32,187 nucleotides of DNA from Candidatus Peribacteria bacterium (GCA_943359415.1 CALRHQ010000003.1:1-32187); one strand, 5' to 3'. Positions 2,422 through 14,850 are shown, counted from the stretch's first letter. Numbers and translations are program-made. The notes: generated from the sequence alone by a model not told the origin.

Positions 2422-3036
2422 ATGAAAAGGTTCTCTACGTTAATGATGTTAGGAATAATAGCTGTTGTTGCTTTTGGTGGATACAATGTGTATTTGTCGT
2501 GGCAAAAATCTGCGCTTTCAGATGAAGTTCTTCAGGCTGACGTGCTTCTTTCTGATTATGGAAAACAGGTTTTACAGTATGAAAACAAGCAAGTCTTGGA
2601 ATCTATAAATGCAAAAAAGACTATCAATGAGCTGAAAAATGAAGGAATTATAGAATGGTCCAGTGTTATCAAAAAAATCAGAATGACGATTCCTAAGGTT
2701 GATGGAATCCCTGTAATCACGGTTCTTTCGTATTCCGGATCGTCAAATGATGAAATCTCAATGAATGTGAAAACAACTGAAACTTCTGAAAATCCATATT
2801 TTGATGTTGCGGATGTTATAAAAGCTTTTAATTCGAGTAAATATTTTACTGAAGCTTTTGTTCCCTCAATTTCAAATGGAGTTGATGAGAAAGGTAATCA
2901 AATTTTGACTTTTCTTTTGAGTATGAAATATCTTTCAAATAGTGCTGATGTGTCTCTTAGTGATGCCGATTTTGGAAGTGTTGATGTGCCTTCTTCAAGC
3001 GCTACAACTGATAATGTAAATAAAGTTTCAAGATAA
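2422..3036 (+). CDS. PilN-like type IV pilus alignment protein
   Basis: N-terminal TM, coiled coil, then IEWSSVIKKIRMTIP and a ferredoxin-like region ending in LTFLLSM. Sits upstream of pilO-like and pilC. Confidence 0.65.
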   Translation: MKRFSTLMMLGIIAVVAFGGYNVYLSWQKSALSDEVLQADVLLSDYGKQVLQYENKQVLESINAKKTINELKNEGIIEWSSVIKKIRMTIPKVDGIPVITVLSYSGSSNDEISMNVKTTETSENPYFDVADVIKAFNSSKYFTEAFVPSISNGVDEKGNQILTFLLSMKYLSNSADVSLSDADFGSVDVPSSSATTDNVNKVSR

Positions 3037-3070
3037 ATTTAAAAAAAATTACTAAAATAAAAACAAAAAT

Positions 3071-3655
3071 ATGTTAGAACAAAATGTACAAGATCAGCAG
3101 ATATATGTTGAAGGGAATAGCAATAAAGGCTCTATTGTCGGTATTTTTCTGATCATTCTTGTTGTGTTTGGATATGTATTTTATACAAAAGGACTATCTT
3201 CCGAGGTAAGCCAAATGAATGCAGATATTACAAGTAAAAATTTGCAGATTGAGGAAAGCAAAGCCAAAGTTGTAGAGATGACAAAGGCGGAAAAAGAACT
3301 TGATTTGTCCAGTGAGGTGAAGAAAACAGAGCTTCTTAAGTCTGTTCCGAAAGATGTAGCTCAAGATCAGATTATTAGAGATATTATCGATACTTCTAAA
3401 ATTCATGATATTAAATTGAATTCTATAGGTTTTGGAAAAGGGGCTTCAAGTAAAGAAGGAGTTGGTTCGCTTCGAATCAATGCAAGTTTTGAAGGAAGTT
3501 ATAATGATCTTGTCTCATTTCTTGAAAGTCTTGAGCAAAATGCGAGAGTTCTTATCGTTGATAGTATAAGCGTTCAGCTTGGAAAAACTGATTTGCTAGA
3601 TTCTACGAGAGCAACTTTTTCTCTTTCAATGCAGGCTTTTTATCTTAAAAAATAA
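3071..3655 (+). CDS. pilO: PilO-like type IV pilus alignment protein
   Basis: Single TM, coiled coil, then LRINASFEGSYNDLVSFLESLEQNARVLIVDSISV, typical of PilO/GspM folds. Confidence 0.8.
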   Translation: MLEQNVQDQQIYVEGNSNKGSIVGIFLIILVVFGYVFYTKGLSSEVSQMNADITSKNLQIEESKAKVVEMTKAEKELDLSSEVKKTELLKSVPKDVAQDQIIRDIIDTSKIHDIKLNSIGFGKGASSKEGVGSLRINASFEGSYNDLVSFLESLEQNARVLIVDSISVQLGKTDLLDSTRATFSLSMQAFYLKK

Positions 3656-3674
3656 TTATTGAACTTTTGAATTT

Positions 3675-4922
3675 ATGGAAAATAATGTAAAAAATCAGTC
3701 GGTTAGCGATACTGACTTTGTTGTGGCTGGGGCTTCGGAAAGCGGATATGAAGTTTTGAATAAAGTTAAAAATTCAAAAGAAATTATTGCTGATAATGTA
3801 ATTTATGGAGTTTATAATAATGAAAATGCAGGACTTTTTGTGAAGTTGAATGATTTTTTCATAGATCGTTCAAGTGTTGGACTTAAAGATAAATCTTATT
3901 TTTTCCATATGCTCGCAGTGATGGTGGATGCTGGAATTCCAGTTGTGGCTGCGACTAAATCTCTTGCTGCAAGAACTGAAAATCCAAGACTTGGTCGTAT
4001 TTTGAATACGTTGGCTCATAGTTGTGAGCATGGTTCTACTTTGGCCGATAGTATGAGTAGATTTGAAACGATTTTTGAAGAATCCGAGATTGGGATTGTG
4101 CGTGCCGGAGAGGAAACAGGAAAACTTAATACAATGCTTTTCAAACTTTCCGCTCAGCTTGATAAAAATCATGATTTATATTTAAAGCTTTGGGGCGCAG
4201 CGGTTTATCCGATTGCTGTTTTGTGTGTACTTGTATTGGTTTCGATTGGTATGCTTGTTTGGGTTTTCCCAAGCTTGATGAGTTTGCTTACACAAGGTGG
4301 AGTTACTGAAGCGAATCTTCCTTTGGCTACAAAAGTTTTGCTAAATTTACAGAGAGCTGTTACAGGTTATTGGTGGGCAATTTTGGCTGGAGTCCTTGTT
4401 TTTTATGGGACTTTCAATGTTTATGTTGGAAGTGATTATGGGGCTTATAGATGGGATTATTTTAAACTTAAATTTCCTATCGTCGGAGGACTTTTACGAA
4501 AACTTTATGTTTTGCAGTTTGTTAGTTTGGTAGGTCTTCTTATTGAGGCTGGACTTCCTGTTATCAGAGCGATTTCTATCACAGGAGGTGCTATTTCAAA
4601 TAAACTTTATAAACTGAAAACTCAGGAAGTTATGAGTGCCGTGCGTGATGGTAGAAAAATTTCTGAAAGCTTGATGGACAGTAATTTTCTTTTCCCTGCT
4701 GAAGTTGTACAAATGTTGAATGTAGGTGAATCTTCTGCCAGTCTTGGAAAAATTTCCGAGAAAATTGCAGATCAATATCAAAGAGAAATTGATAATGGAC
4801 TTAAAAAGATTTCATCTGTTTTTGAACCTGTAATGATTTTGTTTGTCGGTCTTTTTGTAGCGCTTTTGGCGCTTGCGATCATGGCCCCTATCTTTAATCT
4901 TAGCAATGTTGTTGGAAGTTAA
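3675..4922 (+). CDS. pilC: Type IV pilus inner-membrane platform protein PilC (GspF family)
   Basis: Two T2SSF repeats (LAVMVDAGIP...AGEETGKL; LIEAGLP...VGESSASL), YP and EP motifs, three TM segments. Confidence 0.95.
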   Translation: MENNVKNQSVSDTDFVVAGASESGYEVLNKVKNSKEIIADNVIYGVYNNENAGLFVKLNDFFIDRSSVGLKDKSYFFHMLAVMVDAGIPVVAATKSLAARTENPRLGRILNTLAHSCEHGSTLADSMSRFETIFEESEIGIVRAGEETGKLNTMLFKLSAQLDKNHDLYLKLWGAAVYPIAVLCVLVLVSIGMLVWVFPSLMSLLTQGGVTEANLPLATKVLLNLQRAVTGYWWAILAGVLVFYGTFNVYVGSDYGAYRWDYFKLKFPIVGGLLRKLYVLQFVSLVGLLIEAGLPVIRAISITGGAISNKLYKLKTQEVMSAVRDGRKISESLMDSNFLFPAEVVQMLNVGESSASLGKISEKIADQYQREIDNGLKKISSVFEPVMILFVGLFVALLALAIMAPIFNLSNVVGS

Positions 4923-5670
4923 AAAACAATCAGGATTTTCTCGAAGTGGATTTACGCTAGTAGAAATTATAGTCGTTATGGGGCTTGTTGCCGCATTGGC
5001 TGTTTTATCTGTAGGTGGATATTTGCAATATAGAAAAAGCACTATTCTTAATCTGTCTGCTGATAGCATCATTGCACAAATTTATTCTCAAAGAGATAAG
5101 GCGATGTTAGGTTCTTATAAAGGTCAAAGGGCTGAGGAAATAAGGACTGAGTTGGATAAGGTTTCTGGAAATTCCGGTGTTGAAACGGTTTTGAAAAAAG
5201 ATGTTTTTGATTCGAAATGTTTTATAGTTTTATTTGAAAAAAGTGTTGATGGTGAATTTTTAGCTTATATGTCCCAAAAAAATTTTAGTGGTAAGAAAAT
5301 TTTTGTAGGTGATTCTTGGGAATACAAAGGGTGTAAAGATGTTACCAATGGTACTGTAATTCAAAAGAATTTATTTGAGTTGGATGCTCTTATCAAAATT
5401 GATAATGTTTCGATCGGAAATTTTTCGGAAGGTGGAGTGAAAACGCAAGTTTCTCAGTCTCTTGAGGTTAAATTTTTGCCACCAGATGGAAAAATTCAAG
5501 TTTTAGTGGATGGACAGGTGAAAAATGCCGATATAACTCAGGCCGGTGCGCAAGGTCCTTTGCCTATTTTTGGTATGAAAATTGATATAAGTTATGGTGA
5601 TAATAATCCTGAGTATCAAAAAAGTGTTTTCTTTGATTTTGTTTCCGGAGTTGGAACTATTTCTAAATAA
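4906..5670 (+). CDS. Minor type IV pilin (FimT/FimU/GspH-like)
   Basis: Class III signal G|FTLVE followed by a hydrophobic helix. The ATG at 4906 is preferred over the TTG at 4873. Confidence 0.85.
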   Translation: MLLEVKKQSGFSRSGFTLVEIIVVMGLVAALAVLSVGGYLQYRKSTILNLSADSIIAQIYSQRDKAMLGSYKGQRAEEIRTELDKVSGNSGVETVLKKDVFDSKCFIVLFEKSVDGEFLAYMSQKNFSGKKIFVGDSWEYKGCKDVTNGTVIQKNLFELDALIKIDNVSIGNFSEGGVKTQVSQSLEVKFLPPDGKIQVLVDGQVKNADITQAGAQGPLPIFGMKIDISYGDNNPEYQKSVFFDFVSGVGTISK

Positions 5671-5674
5671 ATAT

Positions 5675-6304
5675 ATGAAAAGTTTTCTTAAGAAAATCAG
5701 TAAAAAAAGAGGATTTACCCTTACAGAGGTGCTTATCGGGATTTCGATTTTGACTGTTGCTATTGTTTCGGCGACAAATTTGCTTGTCACGATTGTTCAA
5801 TCAAATAAAAATAATGTGAAAACTTTGCAGGCTTATTATTATGCTCAAGAAGGGCTTGAGGCTTTTAGAAATATTCGTGATACGAATTGGTTACATAATC
5901 AAGATTGGCTTGATGGAGATATTAATCAGAAAATTCAGAAAATTTGGGGAAGTGGATTTAAAAAAAATGTTGATCCTTTGAAAGGCAATATGTATGAAAT
6001 TGTTACAAAAAATGTTTTTGATAATTCTCCGATAAATGAATCCAAGGTCGAAGATGGAATAATGAAAACTTATGCTCCATGGGAAGTTATTTCTATAAAT
6101 AGTGAAATTGAAGCACAAGAAAATAAAATAAATGGATTTAAACGTGTTCTTTATGTTTATTCTTACGATTGTGCGAAAGGACAAATCATGGCTGATTGTA
6201 GCGATTACGTGAGAGTCGTTTCGAAAGTTTTCTGGAAAGATGGATCTGAAAAAGAAGTAAATTTAAATGAAATATTCACTAATTGGAAAGGTGGAGCTTT
6301 ATGA
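5675..6304 (+). CDS. Minor type IV pilin (PilV-like)
   Basis: KKRG|FTLTE plus hydrophobic helix, then QAYYYAQEGLEAFRNIRD. ATG 5675 is 4 bp after the upstream stop. Confidence 0.85.
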   Translation: MKSFLKKISKKRGFTLTEVLIGISILTVAIVSATNLLVTIVQSNKNNVKTLQAYYYAQEGLEAFRNIRDTNWLHNQDWLDGDINQKIQKIWGSGFKKNVDPLKGNMYEIVTKNVFDNSPINESKVEDGIMKTYAPWEVISINSEIEAQENKINGFKRVLYVYSYDCAKGQIMADCSDYVRVVSKVFWKDGSEKEVNLNEIFTNWKGGAL

Positions 6305-6945
6305 TAAAAAATAAATTAAAAAGAGGATTTACCCTTGTAGAAACGCTTATCGCGCTTGGAATATTTGCGATGTTTATGTCGATTTTGATCGGTTCTTATT
6401 CCGGGATTGTAAGATCTCTTAAAGAGGCAAATGATTATCGTATTATGTATTCAGATGCAAGAAGAGTTTTTGATACTGTTGTTGCGGAATTGAGAGAGGG
6501 AATTGTGGATTATGGGAATAATGTTTATGGAGGAGTGTGTAGTAATCCGATATTGTTAAATGGCTCAAAAAATGAAATTTATATGATCTCGAAAGATGGT
6601 GGTTCTGTTACTAAAATTTTTCAAGATGATGTGAAATATGGTGAAACTTCGGGAGTGGAAAAAACTCGCGGTGTTATAAAGGTTTCAAAAAGCATTGGTA
6701 ATGAAATTACTTTGAATTCTCCTGTTGTTAATGTGAAAGAATTTCAAGTTTTTGCTTATCCTCATCTTGATCCTTATGACCTCCAAAATGTATTTAAAGA
6801 TGCTTATCAGTTTCAGCCTTTTGTCCTTGTGAAAGCTGTTTTTGAAAAAGAAAAATTCAATGGAGAATTGTTCAGTGTTTCTTTTGAAACGGCTATTTCT
6901 TCAAGAATTTATAATCAAGTTTTAGTTAAAAAATGCGCAAATTAA
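6301..6945 (+). CDS. Minor type IV pilin (PilW/GspJ-like)
   Basis: KRG|FTLVE. ATGA overlap with the previous gene. Ends FETAISSR. Confidence 0.85.
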   Translation: MIKNKLKRGFTLVETLIALGIFAMFMSILIGSYSGIVRSLKEANDYRIMYSDARRVFDTVVAELREGIVDYGNNVYGGVCSNPILLNGSKNEIYMISKDGGSVTKIFQDDVKYGETSGVEKTRGVIKVSKSIGNEITLNSPVVNVKEFQVFAYPHLDPYDLQNVFKDAYQFQPFVLVKAVFEKEKFNGELFSVSFETAISSRIYNQVLVKKCAN

Positions 6946-8207
6946 ATCTGAAAATTAGTGGAATTTTTGAAAAAAGCGGAAGTGCACTTTTGACGGCACT
7001 TCTTGTGATGGGAGTTCTTATGTCTGTTTCTCTTGCGCTTTCTTCACTTGTTTTACGTGAAATTTATACGACTCGTGAAGTTCTTGATGCCGGAATGGCT
7101 TATTATGGAGCTGAGTCTGGAATTGAGGTTTCACTTTACAATATAAAACATAATCTTCCAGGGTGGGAAACTAATGGGAAAGATTTTGTTCCGCTACAAA
7201 TCGATGACGAAAAAAAAGTTGTGACTGAATATAAAGTTGATAATACTTGTAATGCTTATCCGTGTTTCGGATCTGATTTTGATAAGGGTAGTGCAGAAAT
7301 AGATCTGACTGCTTTTTATGATATTCTTGATTTAAATGAGTCGATAACTATTCCGCTTTTTGTTGTAGGTAATGACTATAAAGAGCATAAAGTCCAGAAT
7401 TTTACAGTTGAATTTTATGGAATTTTTAATCCGACGAATGATCTTAAAGTAAAGGGTAAAAAAGGATTTAATCTTAGTGGATGGGATATTTTGAGGTGGA
7501 AGATTTTGGGAATATCAAATGATAACGCTGTTAAAAATAAAACAGAATCTATCAGTGATTTTACCGCCCTTTCTACTTGGGCGCAGGGTGAGGGGCTTAA
7601 TGCCAAAAAAAATGTGACTGATGCAAAAAGACCTTCTTGGTTTGGAAGCGTTAATTGTAGTGCTAATGCTAATGCTAATGCAAATAAGGGGGAGAGGTAT
7701 ACGGATAAAATTACTTGTATTGGATATGGAAGTGGTGCGCAGGCAGTTCATCTTGGTGATGATATTGCGAAAACTGTTGTTGGAAATTGTTTGAATACAG
7801 AGGCGAGAGAACATTATATTTATGCGAATGGTGAGGTTCAAAGTACTGCAAGTTGTTATCCCATTTCTACGTTTTTGCAAGAACACAGGCTGAATTATTT
7901 GACACTTACGAATCTTATGAATCCTGCGGTTTTTGATGATAAATTTAATGAAGATGAAAAACTTGCGATGTCGAAAATATATTTTAGGATTGAGCTTTTT
8001 GGTGAAAATGGAGAGGTCTTAAATGGGCAGAGTGAAAATGCCGTGTATGACAATAAAACGGTTCGTGAATATGCGGAAATTGTTTCAAACGGTTATAGTG
8101 GAAATAGTAAACAAAGTATCAGTGTGAATTTGAAACGCGACAGCTTTATGCCGGTTTTCAATTTCTCTTTGTATAGTACTTATAAAACTGAAAAGGATTG
8201 GTATTAG
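6933..8207 (+). CDS. PilX/GspK-like minor pilin with large Cys-containing domain
   Basis: G|SALLTALLV without Glu5, then AYYGAESGIE, the characteristic PilX N-terminal pattern. Confidence 0.8.
   Translation: MRKLNLKISGIFEKSGSALLTALLVMGVLMSVSLALSSLVLREIYTTREVLDAGMAYYGAESGIEVSLYNIKHNLPGWETNGKDFVPLQIDDEKKVVTEYKVDNTCNAYPCFGSDFDKGSAEIDLTAFYDILDLNESITIPLFVVGNDYKEHKVQNFTVEFYGIFNPTNDLKVKGKKGFNLSGWDILRWKILGISNDNAVKNKTESISDFTALSTWAQGEGLNAKKNVTDAKRPSWFGSVNCSANANANANKGERYTDKITCIGYGSGAQAVHLGDDIAKTVVGNCLNTEAREHYIYANGEVQSTASCYPISTFLQEHRLNYLTLTNLMNPAVFDDKFNEDEKLAMSKIYFRIELFGENGEVLNGQSENAVYDNKTVREYAEIVSNGYSGNSKQSISVNLKRDSFMPVFNFSLYSTYKTEKDWY
7662..7685 (+). repeat. In-frame hexamer microsatellite (GCTAAT)3-GCAAAT encoding ANANANAN
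   Basis: Read directly: gctaat gctaat gctaat gcaaat. Confidence 0.9.
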
Positions 8208-8261: not shown

Positions 8262-9791
8262 ATGAATAAATTTTATTTGTCGACGGCGATTGCGTATGTA
8301 AATGCGGCGCCACATATCGGACACGCGCTTGAATTTGTGCAAGCTGATGCGCTTACTCGTTATCATCGTGCGAAAGGGGACAGTGTGTTTTTTCTTACCG
8401 GAACTGATGAACATGGAGTGAAAATTTTTGAAGCGGCGCAGGAGAAGGGAATGGATACGAAAGATTTTGTGGATTTTAATGCTAAACAATTTGAAGATTT
8501 GAGAGGAATTTTGAATTTGGCTTACGATGGTTTTGTACGTACAAGTAGTGAGCATCATAAAAAAGGTGCTAAGAAAATTTGGACGGCAATGTTTGAGGCC
8601 GGAGATATTTATAAGGGAACTTACAAAGGAAATTATTGCGTCGGATGTGAGTCTTTTATCCCTGAAAAAGATTTGGATGAAGGAGGAAATTGCTCTATTC
8701 ATAAGAAAAAACCAAAAACTCTTGAAGAAGAAAATTATTTTTTCAAACTTTCAAAATATTCTGATGCGATAAAAAAGGCTATCGAAAGCGATAAATTGTT
8801 GATTTTGCCTGAGGCCAGGAAAAATGAAATGTTGAACTTGATAGGGGAGGAGGGACTAAAGGATGTGAGTTTTTCGCGTCCGAAAGATTTGCTTCCATGG
8901 GGAGTTGATGTGCCAAATGACGATTCTCAGGTGATGTATGTTTGGTGTGATGCGCTTTCAAATTATATTACTGCGCTTGGATATGCTGATGGTGAAAACG
9001 GGGATGAAAGTGATACTTTCAAGAAATTTTGGCCGTGTGATGTGCATTTGATTGGAAAGGATATTTTGAGATTTCATGCAGGAATTTGGATCGGAATGCT
9101 TTTGTCTGCCGGACTCGGACTACCTAAAGCGATTTATGTACATGGATTTGTGACGAGTGAGGGGCAAAAAATGAGCAAGAGCCTTGGAAATGTAGTGAAT
9201 CCGCTTGAGTATGTCGAAAAATATGGAAGTGAGGCGATGAGATATTATTTGCTTAAAGAAATTCCGACTGCTGATGATGGTGACTTTTCTCATAAAAGAT
9301 TTCTTGAGGTTTTCAATAGTGAACTTGCGAATAGCATGGGGAATTTGGTGAATCGTGTAGTGATGATGACGGATAGATATTGTGAGGGGAAAGTGCCTAA
9401 AGAGGTGGATGGAGCTGGTGTTTATGAATTGCTTATGTTGTCCGTAGAGGCGTATAAAACTGCTTTTGAGAGGTTTGATTTTAAAGTTGCATGTGAAGCT
9501 TTGATTTCTATTGTGAATCTTGGGAACAAATATATTGATGATAAAAAACCTTGGGCAATGGCGAAAGAAACTCCTGAAAAAGTTCCGGAAGTTTTATATA
9601 ATCTTCTTGAATTGCTTCGTTTCGTTGGAATTTTGTTTGCTCCGATTTTGCCTGAGTGTTCAGTAAAAATCTTGAAACAAATTGGTGCGGATTTCAACGA
9701 TATAAAACTTGATTCTTTGAAATGGGGTGTATTAAAAGAAGGAAGTATTATTCAAAAAGCTGAAGTTCTTTTCCCTAGGATTGAAGAATAA
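8262..9791 (+). CDS. metG: Methionine--tRNA ligase (short monomeric type)
   Basis: YVNAAPHIGH, GTDEHG, CVGCE knuckle, YVWCDAL, GKDILRFH, KMSKS. No C-terminal tRNA-binding domain. Confidence 0.98.
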   Translation: MNKFYLSTAIAYVNAAPHIGHALEFVQADALTRYHRAKGDSVFFLTGTDEHGVKIFEAAQEKGMDTKDFVDFNAKQFEDLRGILNLAYDGFVRTSSEHHKKGAKKIWTAMFEAGDIYKGTYKGNYCVGCESFIPEKDLDEGGNCSIHKKKPKTLEEENYFFKLSKYSDAIKKAIESDKLLILPEARKNEMLNLIGEEGLKDVSFSRPKDLLPWGVDVPNDDSQVMYVWCDALSNYITALGYADGENGDESDTFKKFWPCDVHLIGKDILRFHAGIWIGMLLSAGLGLPKAIYVHGFVTSEGQKMSKSLGNVVNPLEYVEKYGSEAMRYYLLKEIPTADDGDFSHKRFLEVFNSELANSMGNLVNRVVMMTDRYCEGKVPKEVDGAGVYELLMLSVEAYKTAFERFDFKVACEALISIVNLGNKYIDDKKPWAMAKETPEKVPEVLYNLLELLRFVGILFAPILPECSVKILKQIGADFNDIKLDSLKWGVLKEGSIIQKAEVLFPRIEE

Positions 9792-9793
9792 AT

Positions 9794-10225
9794 TTAGCTT
9801 GCTGCGGATTGAAGAGCTATTTTTATAATGATTCTTACAAGTGAGTAAGAGAAGATTATTATAAGCAATCCAAGTACAGACCATGTCAGGCTGCGTTTGG
9901 CTTCTTCGATTTTCTCAGGTTCTGCTCCAAGCATTGCCATGTTTGAACCCGTCATGACTATTATTATTATGGCTATTGGAGCGGCAAAATAGAGTAAACC
10001 TCCTGCTAGGATTTGCAATAATATTATTGTTCCTGATGTTGTTCCTGCAGTTGTGTTTCCTAAGTCTTTTGATAGATCAAGTGGTTCATTTATAGGTCTC
10101 AAATCTTCAGGAATTGTGTATGCAAATGATGGCATTGTTATGAATGCTGATACAGCAATATTTATGATGGCTGCAAGAGCTATCAGACTAAAGAATTTTG
10201 CTATTTTTTGAAGTTGTTTTCTCAT
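9794..10225 (-). CDS. TrbC/VirB2-like pilin #5
   Basis: Signal peptide (PSFA), then two TM helices joined by GAEPEKIEEAKRSLTWSVLG. Confidence 0.75.
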   Translation of the reverse strand: MRKQLQKIAKFFSLIALAAIINIAVSAFITMPSFAYTIPEDLRPINEPLDLSKDLGNTTAGTTSGTIILLQILAGGLLYFAAPIAIIIIVMTGSNMAMLGAEPEKIEEAKRSLTWSVLGLLIIIFSYSLVRIIIKIALQSAAS

Positions 10226-10228
10226 TTT

Positions 10229-10633
10229 TTATGCCGCTTTAAAGAAATCAATTTGTGCTATTCCTGAGACTATTCCGTAAGCTGATGCTATTACTAAAAT
10301 TCCAATCAGTAAATATTTTAGCATGTTTTTTGCTTTTGAAGTGTCCTCATCTTCTCCACGTGATTTCAAAAAATATACTCCTATGAAGACCAATGCTGCT
10401 AGACTTAGTATCATTGACCAACCTAAAATTGTTTTTATTACATCTGCAATTGCTGCTTCGATGGTTACGCTTGGTAACTTTTTTATTGTACTCAAATCTG
10501 AATAATCTGTTGTGCTACCGGGGCGTGGTGTCAGTGAGTCTAGAGTCGGTTGAGACGCAATTGCTGTTGCGATGCTTGATAGTTTTAAAAATGCTACGAT
10601 GGCGGCTAATTTTAGTGTTTTAAAGTGTGTCAT
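10229..10633 (-). CDS. TrbC/VirB2-like pilin #4
   Basis: Signal peptide, then TM-GEDEDTSKAKNMLKYLLIG-TM. Confidence 0.75.
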   Translation of the reverse strand: MTHFKTLKLAAIVAFLKLSSIATAIASQPTLDSLTPRPGSTTDYSDLSTIKKLPSVTIEAAIADVIKTILGWSMILSLAALVFIGVYFLKSRGEDEDTSKAKNMLKYLLIGILVIASAYGIVSGIAQIDFFKAA

Positions 10634-10635
10634 TT

Positions 10636-11100
10636 TTATTTTGTTGTGGCTGTTGAGGTTGGCGGTGTTTCGTTACCATCTATCCTTATATTTGTGACTG
10701 CTGTGACGATTGTGTAGGCTAGTAGCGCTACAATCATTCCTACAATTCCCCAAATAATTTGTGTTTTTCCTTTTCCTGCGGCTTCCTCGTTTCCGTAGGC
10801 AACCAGATAACGAACTCCTCCGATGACGATCATAAGTAAGGCAATTCCTCCTGTCATTCCTATCATTCCAACTGCAAATCTTGGAAGAATTGTATCCACG
10901 AGTTTTGTTCTTGTTTCTTCTGTGGCTTCAGGTCCAGGTAGATTTGTCGGCCTTGGAATCAGTGAAGGTTTGAATGGCTGTTTTACTGTAGTTGCGGCCG
11001 GTTTCTCTGTAGTTGGAGCGGCGTATGTTACTGTTACCGCTGTTGATATAGATATAGCGATGAAAGTCAGTATCAATAATTTTTTAAATATATTTTTCAT
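10636..11100 (-). CDS. TrbC/VirB2-like pilin #3
   Basis: Signal peptide (VTYA), then TM-GGVRYLVAYGNEEAAGKGKTQIIWGIVG-TM. Confidence 0.8.
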   Translation of the reverse strand: MKNIFKKLLILTFIAISISTAVTVTYAAPTTEKPAATTVKQPFKPSLIPRPTNLPGPEATEETRTKLVDTILPRFAVGMIGMTGGIALLMIVIGGVRYLVAYGNEEAAGKGKTQIIWGIVGMIVALLAYTIVTAVTNIRIDGNETPPTSTATTK

Positions 11101-11101
11101 A

Positions 11102-11806
11102 TTATCTTGTGAAGAATGTTGGATTTACTGTGTAAAGAATAAGTCCTGAAAGGAATAGTACGGCAATTCCTGCTAGAGATTTTAGGATTCTGCCTTTTGC
11201 TTTACCAATCTCTTCGGCTTCACCTCCTGAAAATGAGATCTGGATGCTGCTTATGATGATTACTGCTGTTGCTATAAGTCCTACAAGCCCTGCTGCCCAT
11301 CTGTAAATAAGCCCGACATATCCTTCGATGTACGATGCTCCGCCTTTTCCCAAAATTGCCATAATTGCTCTACAATTGTAGGAAACTTTGTAGGTTGAAA
11401 CCATCTCTTCGTCATTTGCGAGATTTTCTGCGATCGTGGAACAACCTGTTGTTTTATTCGCAAGTTCTGTGATTGTTTTTTCTTCGCCATCTGATTTGAT
11501 AAATCTTAGTGTGCTTCTGTAGCATAATCTTGTTTGTAATTTTGTACTTGTTTTGTCTTCATCTAGAGAAAGTGGTTCTTCTATGAAGGAGATCATCCAA
11601 CCTGATGTTCTGTCTGCGTCTGTGATACATGGAGCACTGTGTTGAGCATCGAGTGCTTTATCGAGTTGTTGTATTTTTGCAGGGTCGAGGTCGGCTGCCA
11701 ATACTGTCATTGAAAATGACATTGTCAAAGCAGAAAATGCGACAATGATATTTGTGAGAGTTATTGTGCTTAAGATTTTTCTAATTTTTTTTGTTTTATT
11801 TTTCAT
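11102..11806 (-). CDS. TrbC/VirB2-like pilin #2 with Cys-containing insert
   Basis: Signal peptide, about 110-aa soluble region with 4 Cys, then TM-GGEAEEIGKAKGRILKSLAG-TM-YTVNP. Confidence 0.75.
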   Translation of the reverse strand: MKNKTKKIRKILSTITLTNIIVAFSALTMSFSMTVLAADLDPAKIQQLDKALDAQHSAPCITDADRTSGWMISFIEEPLSLDEDKTSTKLQTRLCYRSTLRFIKSDGEEKTITELANKTTGCSTIAENLANDEEMVSTYKVSYNCRAIMAILGKGGASYIEGYVGLIYRWAAGLVGLIATAVIIISSIQISFSGGEAEEIGKAKGRILKSLAGIAVLFLSGLILYTVNPTFFTR

Positions 11807-11810
11807 TGTT

Positions 11811-12464
11811 TTATTTTGGCTGTGTTGTCGATGCTGTATTTGCTGCCGTATTTACACTTTGTGTGATGAAAAGTGATTGTACGAAAATGGTTATCACGTA
11901 TGATAAGAATGTTATAATCAAGCCAATAACTGCATATTTGATTATCTCTTTTGCTTTGTCTATTTTTGTTTGATCTCCTTGTGCGATTATCAACATAAAT
12001 CCTGCGACTATGAAAATTATCATCGCGATTGTTCCAATAATTCCCGTCGCGTAATTTATAACGCTTAATATAAATGCTATTATTGGTGGATTTTTTGTGT
12101 CAGAAAAATATGTTTTTTGCTGATCTTCTCCCGGTAATTTTAGTTGTTCATTTACATTGTATTTCAAATCTTTGAGGTCGTATTTATCATTTTCATTTGC
12201 TGCTTCTTTAAGAGCTTTCAGTTCTTTTTCCATCGCTTCTATATTTGTGCCCATAGTCTTCGCTTGGTCTAAGGTCACGTTTGGTCCCTGATATTCTTTA
12301 TATGCTGCGTCTATTTTTTGTTGTAGCTCCATTATTTTGATTGTTTGTTCTTTTGTTGGAGCTGCAAAAGAAATTTGTGAAAATCCTGTGAACATTGTGA
12401 TTGCAAATATAGCTGTCAAAATTATTCCAAGAATTTTCTTATTTTTATACATTGTGTGTGTCAT
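11811..12464 (-). CDS. TrbC/VirB2-like pilin #1 with coiled-coil insert
   Basis: Signal peptide (ISFA), helical coiled-coil region, then TM-AGFMLIIAQGDQTKIDKAKEIIKYAVIG-TM. Confidence 0.8.
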   Translation of the reverse strand: MTHTMYKNKKILGIILTAIFAITMFTGFSQISFAAPTKEQTIKIMELQQKIDAAYKEYQGPNVTLDQAKTMGTNIEAMEKELKALKEAANENDKYDLKDLKYNVNEQLKLPGEDQQKTYFSDTKNPPIIAFILSVINYATGIIGTIAMIIFIVAGFMLIIAQGDQTKIDKAKEIIKYAVIGLIITFLSYVITIFVQSLFITQSVNTAANTASTTQPK

Positions 12465-12474
12465 ATTTTTTGTT

Positions 12475-13518
12475 TTATCCTTCGAAATCTTTCGGCATGT
12501 TTAGCATAGCATTTTCCTCTGAAATAAGCCCTGATTCGAGAAGATCTGTGAGTGACTTTTTCATGGTTTGCATTCCTTCTTTCGATGAGGTTTCTATTAC
12601 AGAATTTATTTGATGAGTTGCTGATTTTCTTATCAAATTTGAAACCGCGTTGTTTACAAACATTATTTCATAGGCTCCTACACGGCCTTTTCCATCTTTT
12701 GTTTTGATAAGTGTTTGCCAGAATACAGCTTTCAAACTTTCTGAAAGCTGAGCTTTGATCTGATTTTGTTGTTCTGTTGGGAAGGCATCGATGATTCTGT
12801 TTATCGAATTTGCACATCCTCTCGTATGAAGTGTCGCGAAGACTAAATGTCCTGTTTCAGCAGCTGTGATCGCTTGCTGGATTGTTTCGATATCACGCAT
12901 CTCTCCAATAAGGATAACGTCCGGTGCTTCACGAAGCGCACTTTTTAGCGCTTTTTGGAAACTATGCGTGTGTACTCCAACTTCTCTTTGTTGGATAACC
13001 GACTGGTTGTTTTGGTGAGTGTACTCAATAGGATCCTCGATTGTGATTATATGATTTTTTTGATTTCTGTTTATTTCATTAATCATTGAGGCGAGAGTAG
13101 TTGTCTTTCCACAACCTGTCGGACCGGTTACGATGACGAGTCCATTTTTGAATGTTGTTGCTTTTTTCATCTGTTGTGGAAGTCCGAGTTCGTCCATTGT
13201 AAGAACTTTTTCAGAGATCAGTCTGAAGACTGCTGAAATACCTTTTCTCTGAACAAACATGTTCACCCTAAATCTGGAAATAGTTTCAATATCCAATGAA
13301 AAATCTATGTCGAGCGTTTGTTCAAACATCTTTTTTTGCTCTGGACTCATTATCTCAAGAAGATATTCTTCCGCCATTTTTTTTGTCAGCTCAGGATGTT
13401 CCTCAATTTTCACCAAATCGCCATTTATACGAAGAGTTGGCTTTATTCCAGTGGCAATGAAGACATCTGATGCGTTGTATTGTACTGCTGTACGTAATAT
13501 CTTGGATAACTTGAACAT
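12475..13518 (-). CDS. pilT: Type IV pilus retraction ATPase PilT
   Basis: ASDVFI, RFRVN, GPTGCGKTTT, TIEDPIE, LREAPDVILIGEMRD, ETGHLVFATLHT, AVSNLIRK (AIRNLIRE-like), GMQT. Confidence 0.95.
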   Translation of the reverse strand: MFKLSKILRTAVQYNASDVFIATGIKPTLRINGDLVKIEEHPELTKKMAEEYLLEIMSPEQKKMFEQTLDIDFSLDIETISRFRVNMFVQRKGISAVFRLISEKVLTMDELGLPQQMKKATTFKNGLVIVTGPTGCGKTTTLASMINEINRNQKNHIITIEDPIEYTHQNNQSVIQQREVGVHTHSFQKALKSALREAPDVILIGEMRDIETIQQAITAAETGHLVFATLHTRGCANSINRIIDAFPTEQQNQIKAQLSESLKAVFWQTLIKTKDGKGRVGAYEIMFVNNAVSNLIRKSATHQINSVIETSSKEGMQTMKKSLTDLLESGLISEENAMLNMPKDFEG

Positions 13519-13543
13519 TTTTTGTTTTTGTTTTATTCAGGTA

Positions 13544-13552
13544 ATTATACCA
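13544..13552 (-). promoter_or_regulatory. Extended -10 promoter (TGgTATAAT) for the pilT-pilin operon
   Basis: The minus strand reads atTTTTTaTGGTATAATtacctg, 25 nt upstream of the pilT ATG. Confidence 0.65.
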
Positions 13553-13581
13553 TAAAAAATCCCCTTTTGGAAAGGGGATTT
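13553..13581 (-). terminator. Intrinsic terminator after the 13613-14284 gene
   Basis: Perfect 11-bp stem AAATCCCCTTT/AAAGGGGATTT with a 3-nt loop, running into a T-tract on the minus strand. Confidence 0.8.
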
Positions 13582-13612: not shown

Positions 13613-14284
13613 TTACCTTGGGATTTTTTTAACCGCTTCTCCTGTAGTTGTACTTGTTTCTTCCAAAACTGCATTATCATATATTTTATCTGTTCCTGTT
13701 GATACATCTTTTAGGTCTTGTACTGTTTTTCCGAATTCACTATTTTCGCTTGTAGACGAGCTTCCGCCAAGTGATGGTGGATTTGAGGGAGAGGTTTCTT
13801 CTTCAGAAATTGTTGTCTCTGTTGTCGCCTCTGTGTTTCCAAATGGAGAAGAAACTGTTGGAGGTGGAGTGTTGTCTGGTGATGCTCCACTAAAGAAGAA
13901 TGAATATGTTACATATCCAACCGTTGTAAGCCCTATGATGGATACGAAAATTATTATATATAATTTGAATTTCATCATTTTATCGATGATTGATGTTGCG
14001 GCTGCTTCTTGTGCCGGAGTTGGTTGTGTTGTTTGAATCGGAGTAGGAGCTGGTTGTGTAGCCTGTGGTTGTACTTGTGCAGTTTGAACAACTGGATCTG
14101 GAGTAACTGCGGCTTGAACTGGCACAGGAGTTGGTTCTGGTGTGGCCACCGGTTGTTGTTGAATTGTTGGTTGTACTGCTACAGGAGCTTGTGCAGGGAG
14201 AGCCTGCTCTGCAGGCGTGGCAGCTTGAATAGGATCCAGTTTTATTTCGTGTGGTTCGTTTGTATTTTGTGTATTATCAGCCAT
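13613..14284 (-). CDS. Single-pass membrane protein with Pro/Gln/Thr-rich and Ser/Thr-rich disordered arms
   Basis: N-terminal PQAT low-complexity region, TM LYIIIFVSIIGLTTVGYVTYSFFF, C-terminal S/T/E-rich tail. Starts 11 bp after the upstream gene. Confidence 0.75.
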   Translation of the reverse strand: MADNTQNTNEPHEIKLDPIQAATPAEQALPAQAPVAVQPTIQQQPVATPEPTPVPVQAAVTPDPVVQTAQVQPQATQPAPTPIQTTQPTPAQEAAATSIIDKMMKFKLYIIIFVSIIGLTTVGYVTYSFFFSGASPDNTPPPTVSSPFGNTEATTETTISEEETSPSNPPSLGGSSSTSENSEFGKTVQDLKDVSTGTDKIYDNAVLEETSTTTGEAVKKIPR

Positions 14285-14295
14285 TTGGTTTTTTA

Positions 14296-14850
14296 TTAAA
14301 TGTCTAGTTTCTCAGGTTCGAGTGGCATTACATTTTCAATAGCAGCCCATTCGCTATCTTCAATTTCAGGGACTACAATTGTTACTTTGTTGCCAATTTC
14401 TCCTTTGAAATATGTAACTGAAGCAAGTAAAACTTTATAGGCTTTACCATTTGCTATGACTTTATATTGTGCATCTTCGTATGTAAGTGTTCCTACAATA
14501 CGTTTTCTTGGAATTGGGCCAATTTGTTTATAAACAAATGATCCATCCGGTTTGATGGTTAATTTCAAAACATCTCCAGGTATCAATTTTGATTTGCTTG
14601 CGTAGTTCGCAGGGACTGGATATTCCTTTGAATTTTTATCTATCATTAATTGACCATTATAGACTCCTTCTACAATAGTGTCGTCACCTTCGTGCTCTGC
14701 ATCGTCTAATGTTTCGGCTGCTTTTGCGTAAGTGGCTTTTGTTGATTTTACGCCTGTTAATTCACCTACAAGTTGTTTTGCTGAACGTAAACTGGACTCT
14801 GCTGAGTCTAGCATTTCTTTGATAAGTGCAAGTTTTGAAGCCTGTGACAT
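14296..14850 (-). CDS. Conserved hypothetical protein (N-terminal helix plus beta-rich domains)
   Basis: IVEGVYNGQLM...YPVPANYASKSKLIPGDVLKLTI...YKQIGP...YKVLLASVTYFK is a motif set I recall from CPR genomes. Has its own promoter. Confidence 0.8.
   Translation of the reverse strand: MSQASKLALIKEMLDSAESSLRSAKQLVGELTGVKSTKATYAKAAETLDDAEHEGDDTIVEGVYNGQLMIDKNSKEYPVPANYASKSKLIPGDVLKLTIKPDGSFVYKQIGPIPRKRIVGTLTYEDAQYKVIANGKAYKVLLASVTYFKGEIGNKVTIVVPEIEDSEWAAIENVMPLEPEKLDI

Follow-up and report, generated by a model that had tools for sequence, protein, structure and literature searches.

A PilT paralogue gene heads a conserved array of five T4SS pilin-like genes across an order of Peregrinibacteria/Peribacteria

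Results

The pilT-pilin locus

The window analysed here is a 32,187-nt stretch of DNA, contig C3 of the Candidatus Peribacteria genome G000 (GCA_943359415.1, CALRHQ010000003.1:1-32187), an assembly of 0.92 Mb in 96 contigs that is 88% complete. It carries a gene for the ATPase PilT followed on the same strand by five small genes, whose products (pilins 1 to 5) belong to the T4SS_pilin family (PF18895) of type IV secretion system (T4SS) pilins. From pilT through pilin-like gene 5 the intergenic gaps are 10, 4, 1, 2 and 3 bp, all on the minus strand, and the coordinates of the open reading frames (ORFs, Table 1) agree with the layout proposed earlier from the sequence of the window (hereafter the original prediction). 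We confirm that pilT heads five PF18895 genes. The array was also said to lie one gene away from a type IV pilus operon; this is the case, and the intervening gene is metG.

Table 1 Features at and around the pilT-pilin locus, in positions of the 32,187-nt window
Feature	Position	Strand	Description
pilT	13518..12475	minus	347 aa; clade-A PilT paralogue; sole PilT found in G000
pilin-like gene 1	12464..11811	minus	217 aa; signal peptide, ~90-aa coiled/charged ectodomain, two-transmembrane (TM) core
pilin-like gene 2	11806..11102	minus	234 aa; signal peptide, four-Cys alpha/beta ectodomain, two-TM core, C-terminal LILYTxNPxFF
pilin-like gene 3	11100..10636	minus	154 aa; signal peptide, disordered linker with IP(K/R)PxxLPGP, helical hairpin
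pilin-like gene 4	10633..10229	minus	134 aa; PF18895
pilin-like gene 5	10225..9794	minus	143 aa; PF18895; end 2 bp from the convergent metG stop
promoter-like site	13573..13544	minus	TTTCCA, 18 nt, TATAAT; 10/12 consensus matches, TG present
intrinsic-terminator-like hairpin	13581..13557	minus	11-bp stem and T run; predicted to end the upstream gene and insulate the operon
metG	8262..9791	plus	PF09334, 347 bits; convergent with the array
type IV pilus operon	2422..8207	plus	PilN-like, PilO, PilC, three or four class-III pilin-like genes

Five pilin-like proteins

Pilins 1 to 5 score 32.6, 30.0, 41.7, 28.5 and 28.5 bits against PF18895, all above its gathering cut-off of 26.6 bits. For the TrbC/VirB2 family (PF04956), pilin 1 reaches 17.3 bits (E 0.0057), below the gathering cut-off of 27.9, and pilins 2 to 5 have no match at E ≤ 1; the pilins of relatives reach up to 24.8 bits (E 2.5e-5), which is still below the cut-off. 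The VirB2/TrbC-like identity given in the original prediction thus holds in the form of the T4SS pilin family of the Candidate Phyla Radiation (CPR), PF18895, for five of five proteins, whereas with TrbC/VirB2 proper the proteins share, as judged by these profiles, a resemblance and not a membership. A family from the Mycoplasma integrative and conjugative element (ICE), NF045849, matches pilin 1 (32.2 bits, E 6.3e-8) and pilin 3 (E 1e-5) below its cut-off of 40.

Hydropathy plots show an N-terminal signal-like hydrophobic segment and two C-terminal hydrophobic segments in each of the five proteins. Between the latter two lies a charged loop, G-x-(E/D)...K(A/G)K, in which K172 and G181 are invariant in a five-way alignment, although the proteins are only 23–27% identical in pairs. 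Hydropathy, AlphaFold2 (AF2) models of pilins 2 and 3 and this alignment agree with the earlier description of a signal peptide, a two-TM core and a charged loop in each pilin. Likewise, as had been claimed, a class III prepilin site of the G-F-x-x-x-E type is found in none of the five, and none matches N_methyl at E ≤ 1.

The AF2 model of pilin 2 has a mean pLDDT of 87, with ectodomain blocks mostly above 90, and shows an alpha/beta ectodomain that runs into a helical hairpin (H156-192/H197-227). Alignment of the proteins at this position shows that the ectodomain cysteines, four in the window protein, are conserved, as is the C-terminal LILYTxNPxFF. In the model of pilin 3, a disordered linker joins a signal helix to a hairpin (H61-100/H105-137). 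The linker motif IP(K/R)PxxLPGP is nearly invariant at position 3, about 15 residues before the first core helix, and may be a processing or docking site. Pilin 1 has L-P-G residues similar to this motif.

Foldseek searches with the models of pilins 2 and 3 returned nothing at E ≤ 0.001. VIA-align (wide) returned generic helical hairpins only, which filled the list so that the ectodomain of pilin 2 was barely probed; the archaeal conjugation pilin 8dfu_B (Z 8.0, rmsd 2.8 over 73 residues) was tied with unrelated hairpins at Z 7.4–8.8, and a fold search with a helical hairpin cannot test homology. When a profile of 28 pilin-3 orthologues was compared with PDB chains, only a chance match to a light-harvesting protein appeared (E 1.7).

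Conservation across the order

The order was sampled with 41 genomes from 17 families, G000 included, of which 38 have a PilT; all are metagenome bins, and close kin among them are not independent. PF18895 genes occur in all 41 genomes, with 9–17 matches listed for each. We scanned the 42 pilT loci of the relatives with a hidden Markov model (HMM) built from the five cores of the window. Three to five same-strand pilin ORFs lie just downstream of pilT in 34 of the 43 loci (window included), one locus in each of 34 genomes. The linked arrangement is found in 11 of the 17 families (f1, f2, f3, f4, f8, f10, f11, f12, f14, f15 and f17). In f1, it is present in 24 of 24 pilT-bearing genomes, the window included, and the further member G021 shows no PilT. 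PilT was likewise not found in G028 and G039, and the genes are unlinked in G029 (f6), G030 (f7), G032 (f9) and G036 (f13). The survey of pilT-pilin synteny suggested with the original prediction therefore places the adjacency in 34 of the 38 pilT-bearing genomes and not in this genome only, and because it recurs in this way the arrangement is more than chance.

Exactly five pilin genes were counted in 26 linked loci (25 relatives and the window), and two loci added later, L077 (G095) and L071 (G038), bring the number to 28. The sizes follow a constant pattern of roughly 180, 235, 155, 135 and 140 aa. When the 28 five-gene loci were compared with each other, the best match was the protein at the same position in 746, 756, 753, 687 and 714 of 756 comparisons for positions 1 to 5, while the mean identity within a position is 36–39%. 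By this sequence measure, the five positions make up five separate orthologous families, and the array is a fixed set, not a variable one. Counted from the pilT stop, the first pilin gene begins at -67 to +37 nt in 29 of 33 linked loci of relatives. The exceptions are an opposite-strand gene between the two (L055, L057), a same-strand gene (L070) and a 686-nt gap (L067).

Named species-representative records, which overlap the order sample and are not independent of it, gave 69 loci with PilT identities of 66–96%, mostly filed as Candidatus Peregrinibacteria, Peribacteria or Gracilibacteria. In 64 of them the downstream sequence extends for 1.5 kb or more; all 64 have one or more pilin ORFs there, and 63 have three or more. 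Four contigs with a PilT of about 80–83% identity (L168, L170, L181 and L197) are filed as Nitrospirae/Nitrospirota or Flavobacteriales bins and are probably mis-binned Peregrinibacteria contigs.

The surroundings are conserved as well. A convergent metG-like gene of about 500 aa is present in nine of 11 array-bearing maps of relatives (one lacks it and one ends at a contig edge), and in further maps metG is likewise convergent, with the same pilus genes beyond it. Overall, the neighbourhood is collinear across the order, from a 184-aa gene upstream through metG to the pilus operon.

PilT identity and phylogeny

The window PilT scores 457.8 bits against the pilT_fam model TIGR01420 (cut-off 319.1), its residues 4–341 covering profile positions 2–338 of 343, and 171.6 bits against PF00437. 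Its scores fall below the cut-offs of the T4SS ATPase models VirB11 (TIGR02788; 61.1 versus 249.95 bits) and DotB (TIGR02524; 162.5 versus 463.3 bits), and also below that of TraJ (155.8 versus 368.3 bits). The translation contains GPTGCGKTT, DVILIGEMRD and AVSNLIRK, which we take to be the Walker A motif, the Walker B motif and the AIRNLIRE-like helix of the PilT C-terminus, respectively. The original prediction had set PilT apart as the motor of filaments unrelated to conjugative pili. This separation is less clean than stated, since PilT shares its ATPase superfamily with VirB11 and DotB.

The pilin-linked PilT is the single PilT-length match in G000, alongside two PilB-like ATPases, and the search for other pilT copies that had been proposed thus returned none. 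The same holds in almost all of family f1, where the pilin-linked paralogue is the only PilT. A quick IQ-TREE phylogeny of 82 PilTs of the class places all 35 pilin-linked PilTs in one clade of 43 rows (clade A; SH-aLRT 99), and a FastTree phylogeny of 121 rows, with 39 PilTs from other CPR classes added, recovers clade A with a support of 98; both trees were made by quick methods with midpoint rooting only. Clade A also holds eight unlinked PilTs, five of which come from other orders. Of the 39 PilT rows outside clade A, none has a Pfam-supported pilin link. One candidate there, L110, had two weak matches to our own HMM downstream of pilT and was dropped, as L110:5534-6307 has no Pfam match at E ≤ 1e-4; the second weak match is 125 aa long, and the Pfam rescan covered L110:5534-6307 only.

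Other PilT clades have neighbours of their own. In the second (L058, L061, L063, L069, L073, L075, L076, L078, L080 and others), pilT is usually followed by a gene for a cNMP-binding (sometimes GAF) protein, pyrH and frr. In the third (L048, L082, L084, L086), a response regulator follows, and L048, the one locus of this clade that reaches far enough, has PilC further downstream. These distinct neighbours suggest separately regulated retraction motors in the class. Tandem pilT-pilT duplications are seen in several CPR genomes outside the order (L117, L118, L119, L087 and L091).

Distribution outside the order

Pilins outside the order were detected with our own HMM, and Pfam was run on selected ORFs. 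In other orders of the same class, including TGA-recoding lineages, we examined 35 pilT genes from 23 genomes and found no downstream pilin that Pfam confirms, and PF18895 was matched at E ≤ 1e-4 by none of the 93 downstream ORFs scanned, which include those of unlinked loci inside the order. An adjacency of another kind is present in G107, also outside the order, in which three PF18895 genes (38.8, 20.2 and 32.1 bits, two of them above the gathering cut-off) stand divergent to a clade-A pilT. Elsewhere in the phylum, we took the 40 best-scoring PilT loci, 38 of which have a PilT ORF. None of the 38 is linked, and PF18895 is found in none of 130 flanking ORFs. In most of these loci, ORF sizes of about 590, 355 and 403 aa fit a pilB-pilT-pilC order, and among the flanking ORFs 40 have N_methyl and 26 have prepilin peptidase domains.

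VirB4 and other ATPases at the head of the array

The VirB4, VirB6 and VirD4 families have no match among the 34 larger ORFs of the window that were scanned. The absence of virB4, virB6 and virD4 noted in the original prediction is true of the window but not of the genome with respect to VirB4 and VirD4. G000 carries a VirB4 at the edge of contig C52 (NF045975, E 1.7e-82, 274.6 bits with a cut-off of 590; PF19044, 91.4 bits), and at least four VirD4-like ORFs (C21, C30, C66, C47) with a further fragment on C15. TrbL/VirB6 (PF04610) and CagE_TrbE_VirB (PF03135) have no match in G000, which at 88% completeness is not proof of absence. VirB4-like matches occur in 40 of the 41 genomes of the order. 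G011 and G025 are complete genomes, and in both of them VirB4 has gyrB and gyrA as neighbours, while every PF18895 match is over 100 kb away. In the VirB4 region of G011 (L113 7224-11850), an 802-aa membrane protein without a Pfam match adjoins VirB4.

PilT is not the only ATPase encoded at the head of the array. In all four genomes of family f7 that were examined, the same neighbourhood has an array headed by a VirD4-like ATPase of 671–697 aa (PF10412, PF02534, PF12696), whose closest relative in G000 lies on C21, away from any pilin. In one of them, G123 (L158:5872-8352, minus strand), the ATPase and pilin 1 form a single 826-aa ORF with the domains DUF87, T4SS-DNA_transf, TrwB_AAD_bind and TraG-D_C and with PF18895 at residues 753–821 (33.3 bits); the two are separate genes in the three sister genomes. 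This single case could be a true fusion or an assembly indel. In the PilT-free G028, a full FtsK precedes a six-gene array, and in G039, also without PilT, the array starts at a contig edge. That the VirD4-like ATPase replaces VirB4 in f7 was considered and rejected: although G030 has no VirB4 match, matches at E 1e-79 to 1e-83 are present in G074, G123 and G139. All four f7 genomes encode a separate protein of about 255 aa that matches only the N-terminal part of the VirB4 model.

Predicted transcription signals

An extended -10 element, TGGTATAAT (TG-G-TATAAT), stands at 13552..13544 directly after the terminator-like hairpin upstream of pilT. Hairpin and extended -10 are kept in five of five aligned relatives of the same genus (G001-G005), and the more distant family member G023 also has a hairpin and TGATATAAT (TGnTATAAT). 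The extended -10 promoter and the insulating upstream terminator of the original prediction were thus both recovered and are kept in relatives, as consensus matches only.

Neighbouring genes and other pilus and pilin loci

The pilT-pilin block stands tail-to-tail with metG, and the pilus operon lies behind metG. The operon matches PilO/T2SSM_b, T2SSF and N_methyl, with the class-III pilins at 5594-6945. A second pilus operon on contig C31 has a possible pilM followed by pilN, pilB, pilC and a pilin gene, without pilT. In all, G000 contains two PilB and two PilC as well as class-III pilins. Upstream of pilT, on the minus strand, are genes for a Pro/Thr/Gln-rich protein of 223 aa with one hydrophobic segment (13613-14284) and for a 184-aa protein (14296-14850), neither with a Pfam match. 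In the four f7 loci (L111, L112, L157 and L158), proteins of 183–195 aa with N-termini like that of the 184-aa protein are encoded a few genes ahead of the array.

PF18895 has 12 matches in G000: five in the window, four on C56 and one each on C9, C41 and C65. At the second locus, which is on C56 and also conserved, one ORF (L160:3-1022) has three tandem T4SS_pilin domains (79.8 bits), and after it (L160:1074-5729) a giant surface protein of at least 1552 aa is encoded, with an N-terminal PF18895/TrbC-like domain and a body of PKD repeats. In relatives, a locus of this type mostly consists of two proteins of about 340 aa, with three pilin-domain matches each, and one of about 1600 aa, as in G011 (571–573 kb) and G025 (479–481 kb).

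Discussion

We tentatively propose that the locus joins co-regulated modules of one host-contact programme in this Peregrinibacteria/Peribacteria order; we prefer this reading while giving it somewhat less than an even chance. Under this proposal, the clade-A PilT and five fixed, non-redundant PF18895 proteins would be co-transcribed from the one putative promoter. PilT would keep its ordinary role as the hexameric retraction ATPase of type IV pili, and these pili would be built by the PilB/PilC sets encoded in the window, on C31 and on C7. The five pilin-like proteins would be exported by Sec, cleaved after an A-x-A site and held in the membrane by the helical hairpin, with the charged loop predicted to point toward the cytoplasm. 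Five subunit types may then form a short heteromeric surface structure, presumably assembled by VirB4-type T4SS-like machinery encoded elsewhere. The coupling would be regulatory, in that the cell would produce the VirB2-like contact structure together with the retraction that draws it to its host.

The operon layout, the PF18895 membership of the five proteins, the recurrence of the arrangement in the order and in the named records, and the positional orthology speak for this proposal. So does a PilT that still scores as a true PilT and has no second copy in G000, although this genome encodes two PilB, two PilC and class-III pilins and its C31 operon runs pilB-pilC where most loci of other CPR classes fit pilB-pilT-pilC. 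A separate T4SS ATPase also speaks for it, as VirB4-like matches are present in 40 of the 41 genomes and unlinked to PF18895 in the two complete ones. The same is true of the dispensability of PilT to the array: arrays exist without any PilT in G028 and G039, a clade-A PilT is unlinked in G029 and G036, and a gene on the opposite strand parts pilT from the array in L055 and L057. Several observations weigh on the other side. A hexameric ATPase gene recurrently heads the array, namely PilT in most families, the VirD4-like ATPase in four of four f7 genomes and FtsK in G028, and this recurrence hints at a direct partnership between ATPase and pilins over mere co-regulation. In neither of the two complete genomes checked does a VirB2-like gene lie near VirB4, whereas the VirB2-like genes of Saccharibacteria are reported inside the T4SS cluster (Wang et al. 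2023, PMC10633639). Three PF18895 genes adjoin a clade-A pilT independently in G107, outside the order. Finally, since the whole region is collinear across the order, conservation is weakened as an argument and cannot by itself separate selection for co-expression from inertia.

The recurrent ATPase raises the alternative of direct motor coupling, which we regard as possible but doubtful. Here the clade-A PilT, alone or besides its pilus role, would have been recruited as the cytoplasmic hexameric ATPase of the VirB2-like structure. It would play a part like that of VirB11 or DotB, extracting pilins from the membrane, or returning them to it, via the cytoplasmic loop, and a monoderm-type system otherwise without VirB11 would thereby gain a T4SS-type filament able to retract. 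To our knowledge, monoderm-type T4SSs lack VirB11. Those of the CPR are described as being of the monoderm type (Quinonero-Coronel et al. 2025, PMC12102498). The phylogeny fits such a recruitment, with 35 of 35 pilin-linked PilTs in one clade of 43 rows and Pfam-supported links in none of the 39 rows outside it, as does the junction, which is 10 nt in the window and -67 to +37 nt in 29 of the 33 linked loci of relatives. It also gains from the slot being filled in all four f7 genomes by a VirD4-like hexameric T4SS ATPase, once fused with pilin 1, from the divergent adjacency of clade-A pilT and PF18895 genes in G107, and from the superfamily that PilT shares with VirB11 and DotB. Yet the protein is a full-scoring PilT that fails the VirB11 and DotB cut-offs, and since G000 has no other PilT and its pilus genes look complete, the pilus role is the default. 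Arrays without PilT (G028, G039) or with PilT elsewhere (G029, G036), the opposite-strand insertions that part pilT from the array in L055 and L057, and the standing of the G123 fusion as a single case that an assembly indel could produce also count against it. A bolder version, which we consider unlikely, is that the PilT paralogue was captured as the missing VirB11/DotB-like motor of a monoderm-type T4SS-like system and, together with the five VirB2-like subunits, would make a retractable heteromeric filament of the conjugation type that grips or probes hosts. If so, the structure would be a hybrid of a type IV pilus motor and a type IV secretion fibre, and the VirD4-like ATPase of f7 would be an alternative motor.

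Two further explanations are given much less weight. Instead of forming a separate filament, the five PF18895 proteins might serve the type IV pilus machine as accessory membrane components specific to this lineage, such as a wall-spanning collar or platform in the absence of PilQ, which is reported to be missing from the CPR generally (PMC6744442). This would explain the place of the array between pilT and the pilus operon, as the array always adjoins the metG-pilus operon block in the gene maps examined and pilT leads it in most families. It is nevertheless improbable in view of the homology to T4SS pilins (PF18895, with weak TrbC and NF045849 matches), the coupling-type T4SS ATPase that leads the array in f7, the same domain heading the PKD-repeat giant surface protein at the second locus, and the homologous Saccharibacteria array, which is described as part of a T4SS cluster (PMC10633639). 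Alternatively, a single event in the order's ancestor may have placed pilT beside the array, and the two would simply have stayed together, with no link beyond read-through. The conservation of the junction would then be nothing special, because collinearity extends over the whole neighbourhood throughout the order, the 184-aa gene, metG and the pilus operon included, and the junction has in fact been broken or altered several times (f6, f7, f13; L055, L057). Such neutral synteny is improbable, however: the junction stays within -67 to +37 nt in 29 of 33 loci even though the pilins have diverged down to 36–39% mean identity within a position, another ATPase takes the slot when pilT is gone in f7, and a second, independent adjacency is present in G107.

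Taken together, the dedicated PilT clade, the tight spacing despite pilin identities below 40% and the second hexameric ATPase in the slot, once fused, speak for a genuine functional tie. The full PilT score, the position of this protein as the sole PilT beside pilus genes, the PilT-free or unlinked arrays and the interrupted loci advise caution over taking that tie as mechanical and obligatory. The original prediction is thus supported in part: the operon layout behind the suggested functional coupling is real and conserved, and a physical coupling of PilT to a VirB2-like filament is a hypothesis only, as arrays with a VirD4-like or FtsK ATPase, without PilT or split from it also exist.

Cultivated CPR bacteria live attached to other microbes. 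In cultivated Saccharibacteria, type IV pili and an unusual T4SS with VirB2-like pilins are reported among the genes needed for this attached life (PMC10633639). In G000, one putative promoter links the only retraction motor to five VirB2-like subunits, near pilus genes and far from VirB4. A regulatory link would define a compact host-contact regulon. A mechanical one would make this the first T4SS-type fibre with a PilT motor and would mean that secretion ATPases can be exchanged between filament classes. The fixed five-position set argues against an antigenic-variation reading of such arrays and points to a defined multi-subunit structure. With their small size, the candidate proteins lend themselves to heterologous expression and structural studies.

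Comparison with known systems

VirB2-like arrays of the CPR have been published as 2–11 divergent tandem genes with about 25% identity between paralogues, identified via PF18895/PF04956, with a pilin near virB4 in 1,135 of 1,948 assemblies (PMC12102498), and the T4SS cluster of Southlakia epibionticum is reported to contain an essential series of pilins (PMC10633639). As far as these accounts go, the array described here shares with them the Pfam family, the tandem divergent genes (23–27% identity), the Sec-type signal and the two-TM core. It differs in that the published arrays are discussed relative to virB4 or inside a T4SS cluster, whereas here over 100 kb separate the array from VirB4 in complete relatives, and in that the array is led by pilT and has five fixed orthologous positions in place of a variable array. 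The word PilT occurs zero times in the main texts of PMC12102498 and PMC10633639, whose supplements may list array neighbours. The Peribacteria genome paper mentions only twitching and pilus genes (PMC4736985), and no title or abstract returned by full-text literature searches describes a pilT-VirB2 operon.

Compared with VirB11, DotB and TraJ, the window PilT is a member of the same superfamily (PF00437) with partial scores on their models, and in both cases a cytoplasmic ATPase is encoded beside T4SS-type pilin genes. Unlike them, it fails all three cut-offs, passes the PilT/PilU model and is not next to VirB4. The canonical CPR pilus operon (pilB-pilT-pilC, with pilins and PilD) has the same PilT family, and PilB, PilC, PilN/O and class-III pilins are all encoded in G000. 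Here, however, pilT stands outside the pilB-pilC context, which is found on C31, and heads a VirB2-like array. The Mycoplasma ICE module, with the pilin-like Mbov_0395 (NF045849) and the VirB4 Mbov_0397 (NF045975), is matched by pilins 1 and 3 and by the G000 VirB4, all below the cut-offs; these matches fit the published ancestry of CPR T4SSs in monoderm conjugation.

PilT/PilU multi-paralogue sets elsewhere resemble the present case in having several PilT paralogues per lineage, each with its own neighbourhood (here clade A and the second and third clades, B and C). The difference is that one paralogue is tied here to VirB2-like genes, for which the literature searched holds no such description. 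While VirB2-like arrays themselves are already known, what appears to be new is an order-wide, fixed set of five VirB2-like subunits that is not linked to VirB4 and has a dedicated PilT paralogue at its head.

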